A stretch of 32,000 nt of DNA from NCBI GenBank assembly GCA_963662715.1, contig OY759724.1:1770001-1802000 (forward strand). The letters are read 5' to 3'. The position numbers and the translations under genes were made by a program. Numbering within the stretch: the stretch's first letter is position 1; each line of letters starts with the position of its first letter. Shown here piece after piece: positions 819-13,172 of this stretch. The stretch comes from Candidatus Omnitrophota bacterium (GTDB lineage: Bacteria; Omnitrophota; Gorgyraeia; Zapsychrales; JANLHA01). The notes beneath the pieces are model-generated. The model was not told the origin of the DNA, made no database searches, and saw only the letters and a list, made by a program, of their open reading frames with translations.

Positions 819-2078
819 ATGAAGATTCCCGGAAAAAAGTTTCTTTTTGACATTCTTACCTTTTGTCTGGTTATAACACTGCTTGAATTGTTTCTTACCA
901 TAGTGTGTTTCTTCTCCCCCATGGTCAACGTGCTTTTAACCATGGATTCCATCTCGCCCAGCGTCCCGGATGAACGCCTCGGGCATCGTCCTAATCCTGC
1001 CCTGCCGGGGCACGACGATAAAGGATTCCGCAACGCCTCAGTGCCGGACGAGGCTAAAATAGTAGCCCTGGGGGATTCGCAGACTTATGGCGACGGTGTC
1101 TTTTGGCAGGATGCCTGGCCCAGCAAGCTGGAAGAATTATCCGGAGACACAGTCTACAGCATGGCCTTCGGGGGCTATGGGCCCGCCCACAGTCTTATCC
1201 TGTGGGAAGAGGCGGCCCTTTTCAACCCGCGGATATATATAGAGGCCTTCTACTCCGGCAATGATTTGTTTGATTCCTTTAACTTGGTTTACAATTTAGG
1301 ACAGCTGCCAGAGTTGAAGACAGCAAATAAAGAAATAGAGTTAGAGATAAGAGAGATGGAAAAGGCGGAATCCGTCGCGCAACATGTTTCGAACCTGTAT
1401 AAAATGGGGAAAAATAAAAAAGGAACCCTGGGGTATTATTTATCCCTGGGCGATGATTTTTTTTCGTCCCATTCGAATATATACGTATTGCTGCGCCGGG
1501 CTAAGCGCGAATTGTTCCGGCTTATTGAATCGGGGAAGACTGAATCGGATTGGGGTAAGGCAAGGACATTTGCCGAAGAGAATTCCGATTACTGTCAGGC
1601 TTTTGAGGACGGGCCGTTTAAGACAATCTTTACACCGGACTACCGGCTTACGGCCCTCGACTTAGAAGACAGGCGGATTGCCGAAGGGTATCGTATTTCC
1701 CTTGAGGCTATAAAGCGTATGAACGAACTTGCTTTGCAGCAGGAAAGACAGTTTTTGGTCGTTCTCATCCCCACGAAAGAATTGGTTTTTAAAGAGCTTA
1801 TACGGAATCCTTCTGAAAAACACCTCGCCCTGATCAGGAATGAGGAGCTGTTATGGAAAAAGGCGAAGGAGTTTTTCCGGGCGCATGACATTGATTTCGT
1901 GGACGGGTTGGCGGCCTTCCGGGAGATGCTCAGCCAGGGCATTCAACCCTACCTGGTGTCGCATGACGGACATCCCAACGAATACGGTCATTACGCTATT
2001 GCGGGATTGATTTATACAAAGCTGCTAAAAAACCGCGGAGATGGCGAGGCTGGCATCCGCGGGTTTCAAGATGAGTGA
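819..2078 (+). CDS. membrane-anchored SGNH/GDSL-family hydrolase (esterase/acyltransferase-like)
   Basis: 419-aa ORF with an N-terminal TM segment (FLFDILTFCLVITLLELFLTIVCFF). SGNH-like blocks are present: ALGDSQTYG (block I GDS), GGYGP (II), YSGNDLFD (III GxND) and HDGHPNEYGH (V-like). Confidence 0.7.
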   Translation: MKIPGKKFLFDILTFCLVITLLELFLTIVCFFSPMVNVLLTMDSISPSVPDERLGHRPNPALPGHDDKGFRNASVPDEAKIVALGDSQTYGDGVFWQDAWPSKLEELSGDTVYSMAFGGYGPAHSLILWEEAALFNPRIYIEAFYSGNDLFDSFNLVYNLGQLPELKTANKEIELEIREMEKAESVAQHVSNLYKMGKNKKGTLGYYLSLGDDFFSSHSNIYVLLRRAKRELFRLIESGKTESDWGKARTFAEENSDYCQAFEDGPFKTIFTPDYRLTALDLEDRRIAEGYRISLEAIKRMNELALQQERQFLVVLIPTKELVFKELIRNPSEKHLALIRNEELLWKKAKEFFRAHDIDFVDGLAAFREMLSQGIQPYLVSHDGHPNEYGHYAIAGLIYTKLLKNRGDGEAGIRGFQDE

Positions 2079-2625: not shown

Positions 2626-2752
2626 GCTTGCCAATCCGTGAGGACGGGCTTTTCGTCGTTCTTATCCTCCCTCTGTGCCCCTTCGGAGCGCTATTTCGTT
2701 TTTAAAAACAAGAATACATTAAGAAATGTCAGTTTTTGGGCGAGTCTGGCCA

Positions 2753-2781
2753 TTGACAGTTCTTTAAGAGAAGACAATAAT
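2753..2781 (+). promoter_or_regulatory. candidate sigma70-type promoter for the HExxH/gasdermin-like gene pair
   Basis: TTGACA (2753-2758), a 17-nt spacer, then AATAAT (2776-2781). It lies about 85 nt upstream of the ATG at 2864, in a 240-nt intergenic gap. Confidence 0.4.
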
Positions 2782-2863: not shown

Positions 2864-3904
2864 ATGAATTCATTTGGAAAGATATTTGAAACTTATGAAG
2901 TCCCGGAAAATGTGGGAGGATATCTGGAATGGGTTTCAGGTATTCTTTATATCAATGCATCAAAACAGCAGTGGAAAGAATACCTGAACGTCCAGGCGGG
3001 TGAGACACGTTCAGCCTCTCAACGTGAGTTGTGTCAAACCGTCACCCATGAAACCTATCATTTCCTGCAGATCGCCATGACCGGCTATCTTTACAGGTTT
3101 GCGTGCAGGCTTTTTACAGGTTTCCGGTCACTTTTGTCCCCGCTATTGAGCAGTTCAAAAATAGAGCAGCTGCTCTGCGATCCGCCGCCGCTTCCGCAGA
3201 ATCTTATCGAACTGGTGAGAGCTTTGGACAGCCCTGGCCCGGAGGGGCTGACTGTCCGCGATATCGTGGAATCCTCGGCCTACCTGTACGAACACTTAAT
3301 GCATTATCCGGATATGAACAAATCCTTTTATGACGAAATTTTAGCTTCGTCTCATATCGGCCCGGAGTATAAAAAGGCATATTCTATGGCGGAGGATATC
3401 CTTGGCCCGCATGTCATGGACACATTTCTGACGGCATCTTTTATTTCTCTTTGTTTTGAGCAACCTGCCGGATGTTTTTTAGATGTCCTGAAGGCGATAT
3501 CTGAAGCGGGGCCCGAAGAATTGGCATCAGGCTGTGATTTCAGCCGGATATTTTCGATCACACAGGAAGTCTCCCAAAGGCATAAGCCTTTAGGGCCGTC
3601 CGAAGAAGTCGCGGCAGGGGGGATGTCTCATCCTGTCTATACGCTGTCTTTGGAACTTATGAACGAGTCTTTGGGTCGGGAGCAGGCCATCCTGATGTTG
3701 CTTGCCCCCCGGAGCATGAACTTGTACGGTGCCGTTCTGGCCGTGCGGCCGGCCTTGTTTAAAGACCCCGCCCTTTGGGTCCCTGAAAATTTCAGGCAGA
3801 AAATGCCGGAACAGGATGATGCTAAACTTTTTATTGTCGCTCTTCTGGGGGCTTTTGCCCTCACCCTGCTTAACAAAGGGCAGGACCTTTCAAGATATAG
3901 ATAA
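2864..3904 (+). CDS. uncharacterised HExxH-motif protein (putative zinc metallopeptidase), gasdermin-associated
   Basis: GGGAGGAG SD lies 7 nt before the ATG at 2864; the ORF-track start at 2822 has no SD. A single HETYH motif is encoded at 3047-3061 (H62-H66 of the 346-aa product). There is no signal peptide. A hydrophobic stretch LFIVALLGAFALTLL sits near the C-terminus. No family recognised beyond the motif. Confidence 0.55.
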   Translation: MNSFGKIFETYEVPENVGGYLEWVSGILYINASKQQWKEYLNVQAGETRSASQRELCQTVTHETYHFLQIAMTGYLYRFACRLFTGFRSLLSPLLSSSKIEQLLCDPPPLPQNLIELVRALDSPGPEGLTVRDIVESSAYLYEHLMHYPDMNKSFYDEILASSHIGPEYKKAYSMAEDILGPHVMDTFLTASFISLCFEQPAGCFLDVLKAISEAGPEELASGCDFSRIFSITQEVSQRHKPLGPSEEVAAGGMSHPVYTLSLELMNESLGREQAILMLLAPRSMNLYGAVLAVRPALFKDPALWVPENFRQKMPEQDDAKLFIVALLGAFALTLLNKGQDLSRYR

Positions 3905-3993
3905 ACCGGGCACGAAGAAGTCTGCCCCGCCAGACCGGGGGCTGGCATGAAAAATTTTAACGTTGATGACAAATAAAAACAAAGGAGGGGGAT

Positions 3994-4833
3994 ATGTCAT
4001 TTTTAGGTCTTTGTGATGGGGATCCTTTAGTCACGGTTCTGAAGGATTTGTTCGGCTCAAATATCGTCAAGGTCCCGGAAGAACGCATCAAACCTTTGTG
4101 CGTGGTTGCCAGTTCCGGCCGCCGGACAGCTTTCCGCGGAAAGTTATCCCCTTTGTTGGTCGGTAATCCGGAGTTGAATATTCAGATAAGTTCATCCAGA
4201 ATGGCGGATTTGTCCGGTAAAAGTTCAAGGAAAGTCAACCTTGCTTTAGGGCTGGAAATACTTGAGGGTTTTTTAAAAGGCTTTGGAATCCCGTCTGCCG
4301 GAATAAATTTAAAACTTCAAGGGGCTGAAAAAGTTTCGTTCCATTTTAAGAATGTTGTAAGAGATTTCCTTGATGTCAATGTCCTGGGAAAAATGTTGAG
4401 CGAGCAAATAGTTGATGAAGACAGTCCTGCGGCAAGTATATTTTTCGGAGAAACGGCTTATGCCTTTTTGGTCATTGATTCTGTGATAACCAGCAGTGAT
4501 TTTGCGATAAACCTTGAAAAGGGGCATGATCATAGTTTTAAATTAGATGTCCCGGCCATTCAGACTCTGGTTGCGCAAGCCAATGCCGGGATGGAGGTCA
4601 ACACGACTACGGGCTATGACTTGATATTTAAAGGTCCGGAACAGCTGGCTTTTGCTTTTTCTTGCGTTAAATTGTATTTAGATCAGGCTGGGAGAATTAC
4701 CTCCATGCCGCCGGCCGGTGAGATCCCGACCTTAAGGGTTTATTTCGGGAGAACCAAAGAACATAAAATTGATTATTCTCCGGATAGGGTTCTGTTGAAC
4801 CCTGAGCCAGCCATGCTTGCCTGGGATGAATAA
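3994..4833 (+). CDS. bacterial gasdermin-like (bGSDM) pore-forming protein candidate
   Basis: AAGGAGGGGG SD lies 5 nt before the ATG. The product is 279 aa with no signal peptide or TM helix. The N-terminal ...NIVKVPEERIKPLCVV... segment matches the (V/L)P..I.PL signature I associate with bGSDMs. The central part reads GLEILEGFLKGFG...VSFHFKNVVRDFLD, followed by beta-strand-like alternating segments and a roughly 35-aa C-terminal tail. This is by-eye recognition only; no alignment was run. Confidence 0.55.
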   Translation: MSFLGLCDGDPLVTVLKDLFGSNIVKVPEERIKPLCVVASSGRRTAFRGKLSPLLVGNPELNIQISSSRMADLSGKSSRKVNLALGLEILEGFLKGFGIPSAGINLKLQGAEKVSFHFKNVVRDFLDVNVLGKMLSEQIVDEDSPAASIFFGETAYAFLVIDSVITSSDFAINLEKGHDHSFKLDVPAIQTLVAQANAGMEVNTTTGYDLIFKGPEQLAFAFSCVKLYLDQAGRITSMPPAGEIPTLRVYFGRTKEHKIDYSPDRVLLNPEPAMLAWDE

Positions 4834-4859
4834 ACCCTGTCGGGCATTTTAGCCTTTGT

Positions 4860-4891
4860 CCGGGATATAAGGTCTCCCCGGGATATCCCGG
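4860..4891. promoter_or_regulatory. perfect 14-bp palindrome CCGGGATATCCCGG (4878-4891), with an extra CCGGGATAT half-site at 4860-4868
   Basis: Read directly from the sequence. It lies about 30-60 nt downstream of the gasdermin-like stop codon. Confidence 0.4.
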
Positions 4892-5178
4892 AAACCAGGC
4901 AGACAGCCGTTGGGATCTTCAGGTTCTGCGCGGGTTTTCCGTTATTTTTATGGCCTGAAACATTTTGTCGGCAGCGGAAGGCCCTTATCCGCAGCAAGCC
5001 CTCCGACATTGAATCTTAAATTTACCTCTTACCAGAAGACCTTGTGCAGGGGGAGTTCCCTGAGTTTTTAACGCCCCGGAATATCCTCCGGGGAATAGTG
5101 TTTGTTATTGGTCGGCTTTCTGGTATATTAATTCTGTCTGTTATAAAAAAGGAAAATAAGAAACAAAAGGAGGAAATT

Positions 5179-5586
5179 GTGCCTCTATTAATATGGCAGG
5201 AAGATTTTAGTGTTGATGTTAAGGAGATTGATGAACAGCATAAAAAATGGGTGGGATTTATCAATAGATTATACGATGCCATGATGGAAAAGAAGGCGAA
5301 TAATATTCTGGGAGATCTTTTGAATGATTTTCTTGATTATTCAGGCACGCATTTTAAAACCGAAGAGAATTATTTCGATCAGTTTGGATACGCAGAGGCC
5401 GCCGAACACAAAGAGGCCCACGCCGCCTTTACCCGGAAGGTCCTTGGTTATAAACAGGAAGTCAAGGATAAGAATGTGTTTATTTCCATTGAAGTTTTGA
5501 ATTTTATCAAAGAATGGCTCGTAAAGCATATTTGTCACACGGATCGGAAATATGCCGAATGTTTTCACGAGCATGGTTTGAGATAG
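5179..5586 (+). CDS. bacteriohemerythrin (hemerythrin-like metal-binding protein)
   Basis: AAGGAGG lies 5 nt before the GTG at 5179. The product is 135 aa with hemerythrin ligand motifs: IDEQHKKW, GTHFKTEENYF, AEHKEAHAAF and WLVKHICHTDRKY. Confidence 0.8.
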   Translation: MPLLIWQEDFSVDVKEIDEQHKKWVGFINRLYDAMMEKKANNILGDLLNDFLDYSGTHFKTEENYFDQFGYAEAAEHKEAHAAFTRKVLGYKQEVKDKNVFISIEVLNFIKEWLVKHICHTDRKYAECFHEHGLR

Positions 5587-10911: not shown

Positions 10912-12222
10912 ATGACCAACATGATGAACTCAAGCCGTCCGGCTTCCGGCCGTAATTTGCTGTGTTGTTTTGTCCTCGTCCTGAGCTTGGCCTTGTTCCC
11001 GGGGAATGATGCCGGAGCCATCACAGACGAGGGCGCCGATATTTTTGAACAGTCAAAAAAGAGCGTCTTTCAAATTCGTGTTATTGATTTGGCCAGTGAT
11101 GAAAAATCAACAACGGGGTCAGGGTTTTATATCAGTCCCCAGGGGCATATGATTACAAACTACCATGTCGTTTCAGAATATGTCATGAAACCTGACCGCT
11201 ACAGCATCAAATTTATTAATGAGGACGGGACTTCCGGAGATCTGAGCCTTCTGGGGATTGATGTTATTCATGATTTGGCCATTTTGACCACCGGCCAAGA
11301 GACGGATTTTTTTCTCCGCCTGGGCAATTCCCAAATATTCAAAGGGGAACGTATTTTCAGCATGGGCAACCCGCATGATCTCGGCATGTCTATTATTGAG
11401 GGCACATTCAACGGTTTGATGGAGAAATCCATGTACCGCAAGATTCTTTTTTCCGCGTCTTTGAACCCCGGGATGAGCGGCGGCCCGGCATTAAACCGCA
11501 ACGGGGAGGTTGTCGGGATTAATGTTTCAACGATGGGCAACGATGTCAGTTTTTTAGTGCCGGTGGAATTCTTGACAGCTCTTTATCATGATGTCAAGGC
11601 GCAGGTGGCAAGTCCTGTCGCAGAATGGGAAAGCATTATAGAAAAACAGCTTTTGTCCCAGCAGGACCAGTTTATTGCGGATCTGTTGGCGTCTGAATGG
11701 GAGCATTTGACTCTGGGGGATATGTTCATCCCGGGAGAAATTGCTGTCCCGATCAAGTGCTGGGGGAATTCGATGGACAAGGAAAAAGAATTGATGGTCA
11801 AAGTCCGAACGTCCTGCAGCAGTGAGGACAGCGTATATCTGAATCATGAGGTGTACACGGCTTATTATTCTTTTTGGTTCCTGCATCATACCAGCAAGGG
11901 GATGAACACGTTCCGTTTTTATAATCATCTTGTTGATGATTATGTGGGCGCTTTTTCCTATTATGATGAAGATGATGAGTTTTTCACCAAATTCCAATGC
12001 CGTAATGATTTTGTGAAAATAGCCGGCAGGAATTGGAAGGCGGCTTTATGCGTCAGGAAGTATAAAAAATTCCAGCAGCTTTTTGACCTTAACCTGGTCA
12101 TGAGTACCGTTGATGAATTTGATAATGGTTTGATGGGGGCCTTCGTGGTGAGGGGCGTCGGGAAGAAAGCCGGGCAAGCTTTGATCCGGAGGTTTATGGA
12201 GGAAATACAGTGCCAAAAATAA
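10912..12222 (+). CDS. exported trypsin-like (S1/DegP-type fold) serine protease with an uncharacterised roughly 200-aa C-terminal domain
   Basis: The signal peptide reads LLCCFVLVLSLALFPGNDAGA. The catalytic triad contexts are ITNYHVV (His), DLAIL (Asp) and NPGMSGGPAL (Ser). No PDZ-like sequence recognised in the C-terminal half. Confidence 0.75.
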   Translation: MTNMMNSSRPASGRNLLCCFVLVLSLALFPGNDAGAITDEGADIFEQSKKSVFQIRVIDLASDEKSTTGSGFYISPQGHMITNYHVVSEYVMKPDRYSIKFINEDGTSGDLSLLGIDVIHDLAILTTGQETDFFLRLGNSQIFKGERIFSMGNPHDLGMSIIEGTFNGLMEKSMYRKILFSASLNPGMSGGPALNRNGEVVGINVSTMGNDVSFLVPVEFLTALYHDVKAQVASPVAEWESIIEKQLLSQQDQFIADLLASEWEHLTLGDMFIPGEIAVPIKCWGNSMDKEKELMVKVRTSCSSEDSVYLNHEVYTAYYSFWFLHHTSKGMNTFRFYNHLVDDYVGAFSYYDEDDEFFTKFQCRNDFVKIAGRNWKAALCVRKYKKFQQLFDLNLVMSTVDEFDNGLMGAFVVRGVGKKAGQALIRRFMEEIQCQK

Positions 12223-13172
12223 TTGTCGAAATCACCCCGGATTCCAAGTCTGTGAGAGAATATAAGGTTTTTGACTCCGAAGAAGTGTGTGTCGGCAGGG
12301 GCTTTGATTGTGACGTTATCCTTCAGGATGTTTATGTCGCGGCACGACATCTGCTCATCACCCGTACCGGGGACAGCATCAAAGTCAAAGACCTTGGTTC
12401 CGAGAACGGGACGTTTCTGCCCCCAGCAGAGCGGGTTAATCCCGAGGCCACGCTTTTATCAGGGGATGAGGTGACTTTGGGGAAAACCAGGCTGCGGATT
12501 TATCTTGACTCCCATCCTGTCCCGGCTGCCCGTATCTTATATGAACGTCATAAATTTTTAAAGCTCGCAGGAAAACCTCTGGTGGCTTGGGGCTGGGTGG
12601 GGGTCATGATGGGCTTTACCTTGCTGGAAGTGTATTGCCACACAACGAAAAATGAGGATTTTATTAAACTGCTTTCCACCCCGATTGTGGTCTTCTGCAC
12701 GATTTTGCTGTGGGGAGGGTTTTGGGCTTTTATCGGGCGATTGCTTCGGCATAAAGTTTATTTTTATGAACACCTTTCGGTGTGTTGCGCCTGGCTTTTT
12801 TCCAGCGCGGTGCTGGAAAATATCATTGACTATATGAGTTTCTATGCCAACAGCAAGTTGCTGAACACGATTTGCGCTTATATCCTCAACAGCGGGCTTT
12901 TTATCATCACATTGTTTGCGAGTTTGACGTTCTCGACGAATATGAGCAGAGCGAAGAAGATCACGTTTGCCAGTATTTTTACTTTTGTCCTGGTTGCCTC
13001 TTTTGCCGGCCTGAAGTTGTCGGCTTCAAAGTATTATACATGGGCGCCCCCCTACGATACGATCCTTAAACCGCCTGTTTTAGGGTCCCGGAACGGACGC
13101 CCCATTGAAGAGTTCATTGAGAATACAGATCCTTTGTTTATATTTAAGGAAGAAGAAAAAACCGTTAAATAA
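12210..13172 (+). CDS. FHA-domain protein with a multi-pass membrane C-terminal region
   Basis: The GTG start at 12210 is preceded by GGAGGA and overlaps the protease stop by 13 nt. The FHA signature reads VCVGRGFDCDVILQDVYVAARHLLI...VKDLGSENGTFL. About 5-6 hydrophobic helices follow. Confidence 0.75.
   Translation: MPKIIVEITPDSKSVREYKVFDSEEVCVGRGFDCDVILQDVYVAARHLLITRTGDSIKVKDLGSENGTFLPPAERVNPEATLLSGDEVTLGKTRLRIYLDSHPVPAARILYERHKFLKLAGKPLVAWGWVGVMMGFTLLEVYCHTTKNEDFIKLLSTPIVVFCTILLWGGFWAFIGRLLRHKVYFYEHLSVCCAWLFSSAVLENIIDYMSFYANSKLLNTICAYILNSGLFIITLFASLTFSTNMSRAKKITFASIFTFVLVASFAGLKLSASKYYTWAPPYDTILKPPVLGSRNGRPIEEFIENTDPLFIFKEEEKTVK

Follow-up and report, generated by a model that had tools for sequence, protein, structure and literature searches.

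The stretch of DNA considered here (the window) comprises 32,000 nucleotides (nt) of contig OY759724.1 from the Candidatus Omnitrophota bacterium assembly GCA_963662715.1 (positions 1,770,001 to 1,802,000). The gene in question is an open reading frame (ORF) of 279 codons at positions 3994-4833 of its forward strand, opened by ATG and closed by TAA, for which an earlier note, made from the letters alone, had proposed a bacterial gasdermin (bGSDM) in view of its size and the absence of a transmembrane helix. It is preceded on the same strand by a gene for an uncharacterized protein with an HExxH motif (Table 1). The ORF is present as described there, with all the peptide segments that the note quoted; its maximal Kyte-Doolittle value is 1.50 and none of the 19-residue windows is transmembrane-like, while the ribosome-binding site (RBS) AGGAGG located 6 nt upstream of the ATG makes the annotated start credible. 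Profile searches, which the note had named as the way to check its proposal, gave strong matches to both models of the family: PADLOC bGSDM model PDLC02986 was found with E=3.9e-66 and 221 bits, residues 6-244 being aligned to profile positions 1-232 of 257, and the NCBIfam equivalog NF051890 (prok_gasdermin) scored 192 bits against the cutoff of 100 and was covered completely (1-203 of 203), the profile E-values for this ORF thus ranging from 1e-57 to 1e-66, far beyond chance. Among PDB sequences, phmmer retrieved bGSDM of Vitiosangium (7N51 and 8SL0, E~2e-27) and of Runella (7N52, E=2.7e-5). The ORF is a bona fide bacterial gasdermin, its family membership and fold being settled. The opposite reading, that of another fold or a chance ORF, retains practically no probability and is effectively refuted already, in that the local Pfam scan, which returned no family for the protein and to this extent speaks against the assignment, is opposed by four independent lines (two profile models, the PDB sequence match and the fold search described below) and by 70 homologs with conserved motifs. 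The Pfam negative is itself not evidence against membership, because the local copy probably predates PF26164 (Bact_GSDM), the family precomputed for a database protein identical to the window bGSDM. As a member of a well-characterized family this protein is a divergent but ordinary addition, useful for annotation and not surprising; it is only in the activating protease, on which the note is silent, that the locus departs from the standard, and the potential value of the locus lies in the protease wiring.

Codirected positioning of the HExxH gene and the bGSDM gene, the 89-nt gap between them and the signals flanking the pair are compatible with a two-gene operon. Consensus scans of the spacer found neither promoter-like nor terminator-like matches. 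Promoter-like sites are in total no more numerous in the region than expected from shuffling, and the site preceding the pair should be read as a consensus match only. The wider window is occupied by housekeeping genes, including lspA (signal peptidase II), methyltransferases, proC, ileS (IleRS), a pseudouridine synthase and an EPSP-synthase-family enzyme. GC content at third codon positions (GC3) equals 0.446 for the bGSDM gene and 0.42 for the downstream gene of a hemerythrin-domain protein (3994-5586 for the two together), against approximately 0.53-0.62 for the neighboring genes and 0.527 for the HExxH gene; the AT-richer third codon positions of the gasdermin gene give a weak hint of its separate acquisition.

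Table 1. Genes, protein segments and signals in the window (positions counted from its first letter)
Feature	Position	Strand	Remarks
GDSL-like ORF	819-2078		two genes upstream of bGSDM
Terminator-like hairpin	2635-2657		before the gene pair; consensus scan only
Sigma-70-like promoter match	2753-2781	+	TTGACA-17-AATAAT, 11/12; upstream of HExxH gene; candidate promoter of a two-gene unit
HExxH gene	2864-3904	+	346 amino acids (aa), uncharacterized family; candidate metalloprotease-type partner; 89 nt from bGSDM
HExxH motif (HETYH, H62-E63-T-Y-H66)	3047-3061	+	
Near-invariant E136 of HExxH protein	3269-3271	+	
Spacer between HExxH gene and bGSDM	3905-3993	+	89 nt; bGSDM RBS AGGAGG at its 3' end
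bGSDM gene	3994-4833	+	279 aa plus stop
Cys7 codon	4012-4014	+	equivalent of palmitoylated Cys4 of Vitiosangium bGSDM (phmmer alignment)
bGSDM linker, residues 241-254 (AGEIPTLRVYFGRT)	4714-4755	+	low-confidence, variable; probable protease-accessible cleavage region
bGSDM C-terminal tail, residues 255-279 (KEHKIDYSPDRVLLNPEPAMLAWDE)	4756-4830	+	conserved; probable autoinhibitory peptide
Terminator-like hairpin plus T-run (GCGGGTTTTCCGT TATTTTTATG)	4930-4952	+	about 100 nt past bGSDM stop; consensus match only
Trypsin-like protease gene	10912-12222	+	Trypsin_2, E=5.6e-25; signal-like N-terminus
FHA-domain protein gene	12210-13172	+	13-nt overlap with trypsin-like gene

Fold and functional anatomy of the gasdermin

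The AlphaFold2 model of the window bGSDM, built on 64 homologs, has a predicted local distance difference test (pLDDT) value of 85 and a predicted template modelling (pTM) score of 0.84. When compared with the bGSDM crystal structures, as the earlier note had advised, it found them as its best PDB matches: Foldseek placed 7N51 on top (E=2.9e-19, TM 0.77/0.81), 7N50 and 7N52 next (E~4e-13), then active Vitiosangium oligomers, and after them the gasdermins of Trichoplax, GSDME, GSDMD and GSDMA3. Several elements that had been picked out by eye acquire structural counterparts in this model, since the glycine-rich amphipathic stretch coincides with helices 83-96 and 102-107, and the segments of alternating polarity with beta-strands 111-119, 122-126, 157-176 and 209-229. 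The N-terminal (V/L)P..I.PL signature is likewise present and constrained. In the alignment of the 64 homologs (33-63% identity), P28 and P34 of its VPEERIKPL element are invariant, and C7, D10, F20, N23, E29 and R31 are each conserved in at least 90%.

Cys7 deserves separate consideration. The phmmer alignment sets the query segment GLCDGDPLVTVLKDL opposite to GLC-SDPAITYLKRL of 7N51, with GLCDGDP facing GLC-SDP, which makes Cys7 the positional equivalent of Cys4 of the Vitiosangium protein. Johnson et al. described a palmitoyl thioester on this Cys4 and on Cys3 of the Bradyrhizobium bGSDM, and reported that the N-terminal cysteine is required for toxicity and efficient pore formation. The suggestion that Cys7 corresponds to the palmitoylated position is thus borne out residue for residue, and besides the conservation in at least 90% of the homologs the cysteine is invariant in the 16 closest ones.

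At the opposite end of the protein the note had singled out a tail of approximately 35 aa as an autoinhibitory peptide, and the model resolves this portion into two parts: a disordered linker formed by residues 241-254, with pLDDT below 50 and with length and sequence varying among homologs, and an ordered tail of 25 aa (residues 255-279), in which three short strands (258-260, 265-267 and 273-275) are packed on the core and the motif YSPDRVLL..P.M..WDE is conserved among homologs. A conserved tail on a variable linker is the architecture of an autoinhibitory peptide borne by a protease-accessible linker, where inhibition and cleavage would be expected by homology: the C-terminal domain of the Vitiosangium bGSDM is 29 aa long and the Runella bGSDM is cut after L247. 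Retention of the tail and of Cys7 in 64 homologs at 33-63% identity argues for purifying selection acting on the autoinhibition apparatus.

Vitiosangium bGSDM (7N51 in the inactive state; 8SL0 and 9A84 as active oligomer or pore) is the best match to the window protein both in sequence and in structure, and, with about 27% of the residues identical in the Foldseek alignment, its nearest solved structure. The GLC motif with its cysteine, the (V/L)P..I.PL segment and the short C-terminal peptide are common to the two, whereas the window protein differs by three extra N-terminal residues (hence Cys7 instead of Cys4), a linker and tail that together are slightly longer, a tail motif of its own and the lack of a canonical protease found adjoining. 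The system of Runella zeae (7N52), combining bGSDM with a caspase-like protease, belongs to the same family and presumably shares the logic of a protease-cleaved tail; there, the adjacent protease cuts off the C-terminal peptide after Leu247 and toxicity of the pore-former requires the N-terminal cysteine, but the protease is of the Peptidase_C14 type, which is missing from the window locus, and the sequence similarity is weaker (the E=2.7e-5 given above). With eukaryotic gasdermins (GSDMD, GSDMA3, GSDME and TrichoGSDM) and the fungal HET-Q1/HET-Q2 the window bGSDM has in common the pore-forming N-terminal fold (Foldseek E from 1e-3 to 4e-6) and the principle of protease-gated activation; in contrast to its peptide of the 25-40-aa class, mammalian gasdermins possess an autoinhibitory C-terminal domain of about 200 aa, and identity is only 8-12%.

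Taken together with what is described for the family, it is very probable that the protein acts in the family-typical way, i.e. that proteolytic removal of its C-terminal 25-38 or so residues is followed by membrane insertion, oligomerization and cell death. Synthesized as a soluble, cytoplasmic and autoinhibited product, bGSDM would keep its tail (approximately residues 255-279) on the gasdermin core, as do its Vitiosangium and Bradyrhizobium homologs, with Cys7 probably carrying a self-attached palmitoyl group buried in a hydrophobic groove. A protease cut within the disordered linker (about 241-254) would set the tail free, upon which the core may refold, converting helices of the region 83-107 together with neighboring strands into membrane-spanning hairpins, and the oligomers so formed would open large pores in the inner membrane and kill the cell, presumably in the course of abortive infection.

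The HExxH protein and the choice of the activating protease

The mechanical ORF of the upstream gene begins with ATG at 2822, yet it is the ATG at 2864 that has a strong RBS, GGGAGGAG, before it and at which the alignment with homologs starts; the product is therefore probably 346 rather than 360 aa long. The word-indexed search yielded 11 relatives and the exhaustive profile search (E<=1e-3) 378 representative clusters, as formed at 50% identity; when that word index was queried again, now with a profile, no further members of the family on long contigs appeared. H62, E63 and H66 never vary across an alignment of 99 members in which identity falls as low as 17%, and E136, lying on helix 131-147 at a distance of 70 residues past the motif, is conserved in at least 90%, while composition alone predicts 0.015 HExxH motifs per protein. 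The structural model is of moderate quality (pLDDT 69, pTM 0.75) and almost all-alpha, with a small N-terminal beta-hairpin, a long helix bearing HExxH and a later helix carrying E136, in this order; the C-terminal part contains a hydrophobic helix at residues 318-336 (Kyte-Doolittle 1.70). Two of the 99 members possess C-terminal TPR repeats, and some reach about 530 aa owing to an unannotated extension.

The invariant HExxH and the glutamate look like a protease-type catalytic signature, and their predicted arrangement is reminiscent of gluzincins (thermolysin-like, M48), with which the protein shares the helix-borne HExxH, the downstream glutamate on another helix and the hairpin before them. 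Unlike gluzincins, it is almost entirely alpha-helical and matches no peptidase profile or fold; metal binding and catalysis are putative. Searches against Pfam (extended to the 99 members), NCBIfam, PADLOC and PHROGs gave no match; the family profile found nothing significant in PDB (best E=0.47), and Foldseek, with a model of only moderate pLDDT, did not go below E=0.32 in PDB and 0.52 in BFVD. Profile, sequence and fold searches thus connected the protein neither to the zincin fold nor to a known peptidase family, and the term "metalloprotease" applied to it reflects the motif, not a demonstrated membership.

Genomic contexts of the HExxH homologs (loci L001-L004 and L092-L094) have no common neighbor family and contain no bGSDM, and searches of plasmids and of IMG/VR viral contigs did not detect the family. 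In one of these contexts (L003:4413-9056) a codirected array consists of genes for an alpha/beta-hydrolase-like protein (AHSLGG), Peptidase_C14, Y4kD_C and, as the last one, the HExxH family member P0011. The hydrolase and the C14 caspase resemble the protease-effector death module described in bioRxiv 10.1101/2025.11.14.688446, and this arrangement hints that the HExxH family may serve as an accessory of protease-effector conflict systems.

Within the locus, the HExxH protein is the only candidate for the activator. That it actually cleaves bGSDM is a plausible but tentative proposal, which we would not call probable. A protease gene adjoins 43 of 50 published bGSDMs, and metalloprotease-type neighbors do occur in the bGSDM clade: in two metagenomic contigs, loci L087 (5808-6995) and L088 (4303-5490), a gene for a 395-aa M48-like HExxH protein (HEYAH/HEYGH...ELEAD; Pfam M48 28 bits, U49 weak) lies directly upstream of bGSDM. 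The window bGSDM shares 57% and 59% identity with the bGSDMs of L087 and L088, respectively, and identity between the two M48-like copies is 69%. Both pairs resemble the window pair in having an HExxH protein of approximately 350-400 aa encoded immediately upstream of bGSDM on the same strand, but the gap is 5-28 nt instead of 89 nt and the HExxH proteins have no detectable relation to the one considered here: BLASTP gave E>0.3 and hhalign a probability of 0.2% when the M48-like protein was compared with the window family. The bGSDM papers searched do not contain the word "metallo" and mention no metalloprotease partners.

A quite possible alternative, though likewise short of probable, is that of an orphan bGSDM: the HExxH gene would be a mere neighbor or have an unrelated or regulatory role, and the cleaving protease would come from a phage or from a gene at another place in the 3.36-Mb genome. 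This is favored by the distribution of the HExxH family: across 92 loci, including 45 genome and 37 metagenome loci of bGSDM relatives plus five exact look-up contexts, neither tblastn nor the family hidden Markov model (HMM) found a member of this family of 378 clusters beside another bGSDM, the HMM matching only in the window and in the family's own loci; the pairing is not conserved, which weighs against the HExxH protein as a dedicated partner. The unrelated contexts of its homologs and the lack of a match to any peptidase family or fold point in the same direction, as do the seven of 50 published bGSDMs that have no adjoining protease, the closest genome relatives (L005 and L006), next to which no protease is recognizable, and the difference in GC3 between the two genes as a weak hint of their separate histories. 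Nevertheless, an orphan gasdermin does not readily account for the codirected pair with its 89-nt spacer free of internal promoter- or terminator-like signals, for the protease-type character of the invariant HExxH and glutamate, for the unrelated M48-like HExxH gene that close bGSDM relatives carry in exactly the same upstream position, or for the protease swapping evident in the bGSDM clade.

The more ambitious form of the proposal, according to which the HExxH protein founds an undescribed gluzincin-like metalloprotease family recruited here as a dedicated gasdermin activator, so that the locus represents a core-chromosomal metalloprotease-gated pyroptosis module, we consider unlikely. If it is nevertheless true, the M48-like genes of L087 and L088 would show that the coupling of gasdermins to zinc proteases arose at least twice, independently. 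Should the HExxH protein prove to be the activator, zinc metalloproteases would join the gasdermin-licensing proteases, a function could be assigned to several hundred "hypothetical proteins", and the triggering of pyroptosis-like death by a non-caspase sensor-protease could be studied in a compact two-gene system; if it is not, the locus represents an orphan bGSDM with the trigger encoded in trans. The locus could therefore add a new class to the proteases that activate gasdermins, although nothing yet requires it.

Protease gating in defense, whichever enzyme performs it, must also be set against a reading that dispenses with one or both of these attributes, namely that a protein with the gasdermin fold serves developmental or stress lysis, responds to other cues, or is the product of a decaying gene. 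Two features of the locus weigh against a protease-gated defense gasdermin and lend this reading what credit it has: no gene for a C14, CHAT, S8 or trypsin protease was found adjoining bGSDM, so that the canonical enzyme is absent, and the surroundings in the window are not a recognizable defense island, being a core-chromosomal housekeeping context where neither tRNA genes nor flanking repeats, as marks of a mobile island, were found around bGSDM. It is all the same improbable in view of the intact ORF with its strong RBS, of the purifying selection argued from the tail and Cys7 of the 64 homologs, and of the overwhelmingly protease-linked bGSDM relatives.

Trypsin-like proteases occur in the literature on bGSDM systems. 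The window contains one, with a Trypsin_2 domain and an FHA protein as the neighbor, and these are the grounds for regarding this pair (10.9-13.2 kb) as the cognate activator. Such an assignment is very improbable: the pair lies 6 kb from bGSDM with at least seven unrelated genes between, including lspA and a methyltransferase, the hydrophobic signal-like N-terminus of the protease suggests the periplasm whereas bGSDM is cytoplasmic, and an ATPase or a component of the NLR type (nucleotide-binding leucine-rich repeat) is absent. The pair was rejected as a partner on distance and likely periplasmic location; it probably functions in the periplasm or in signalling and has nothing to do with the gasdermin.

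Protease partners of related gasdermins

The enzymes encoded next to bGSDM among the relatives fall into C14, CHAT, S8, C1, C25-like and, as described above, M48-like types, which indicates that proteases are freely swapped in the clade. Peptidase_S8 is the neighbor in L089, L052/L053, L084 and L007, a 1140-aa CHAT protein in L090 and a C25-like protein in L091, while in L007 (10009-12870) a papain-like C1 domain and bGSDM are found in one long ORF, which could be either a fusion or an artefact of ORF calling in DNA with 70% GC. A PLD-like gene accompanying Peptidase_S8 and a patatin-like phospholipase add to the diversity of partners registered for L007, L052/L053, L055 and L091, which are loci of close bGSDM relatives.

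In loci of the more distant bGSDM relatives from Cytophagales and Chitinophaga, the bGSDM-adjacent Peptidase_C14 carries a fused C-terminal GDSL lipase domain. This fusion is exemplified by L038 (6808-9816) and has homologs in L039-L046 (Larkinella, Spirosoma, Fibrisoma and Chitinophaga), often in the company of a 7TMR-DISM guanylate/adenylate cyclase. A kinship of the window's GDSL-like ORF with the caspase-fused GDSL domains of Cytophagales was considered and rejected, no similarity being found at E=1e-3.

Loci of Chloroflexaceae are organized in the order CHAT, Amidase_2, FtsZ and bGSDM. This conserved same-strand array ending in bGSDM is present in at least 15 genomes of Chloroflexus/Chloroflexaceae (L009:5506-10843; L010-L019, L047, L049 and others) and encodes a CHAT protein of about 450 aa, an Amidase_2 protein of about 640 aa and a full FtsZ homolog (Tubulin E=1e-38 plus FtsZ_C), the stop codon of the FtsZ gene overlapping the start of bGSDM. 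The presence of FtsZ and a cell-wall amidase within a gasdermin operon was unexpected.

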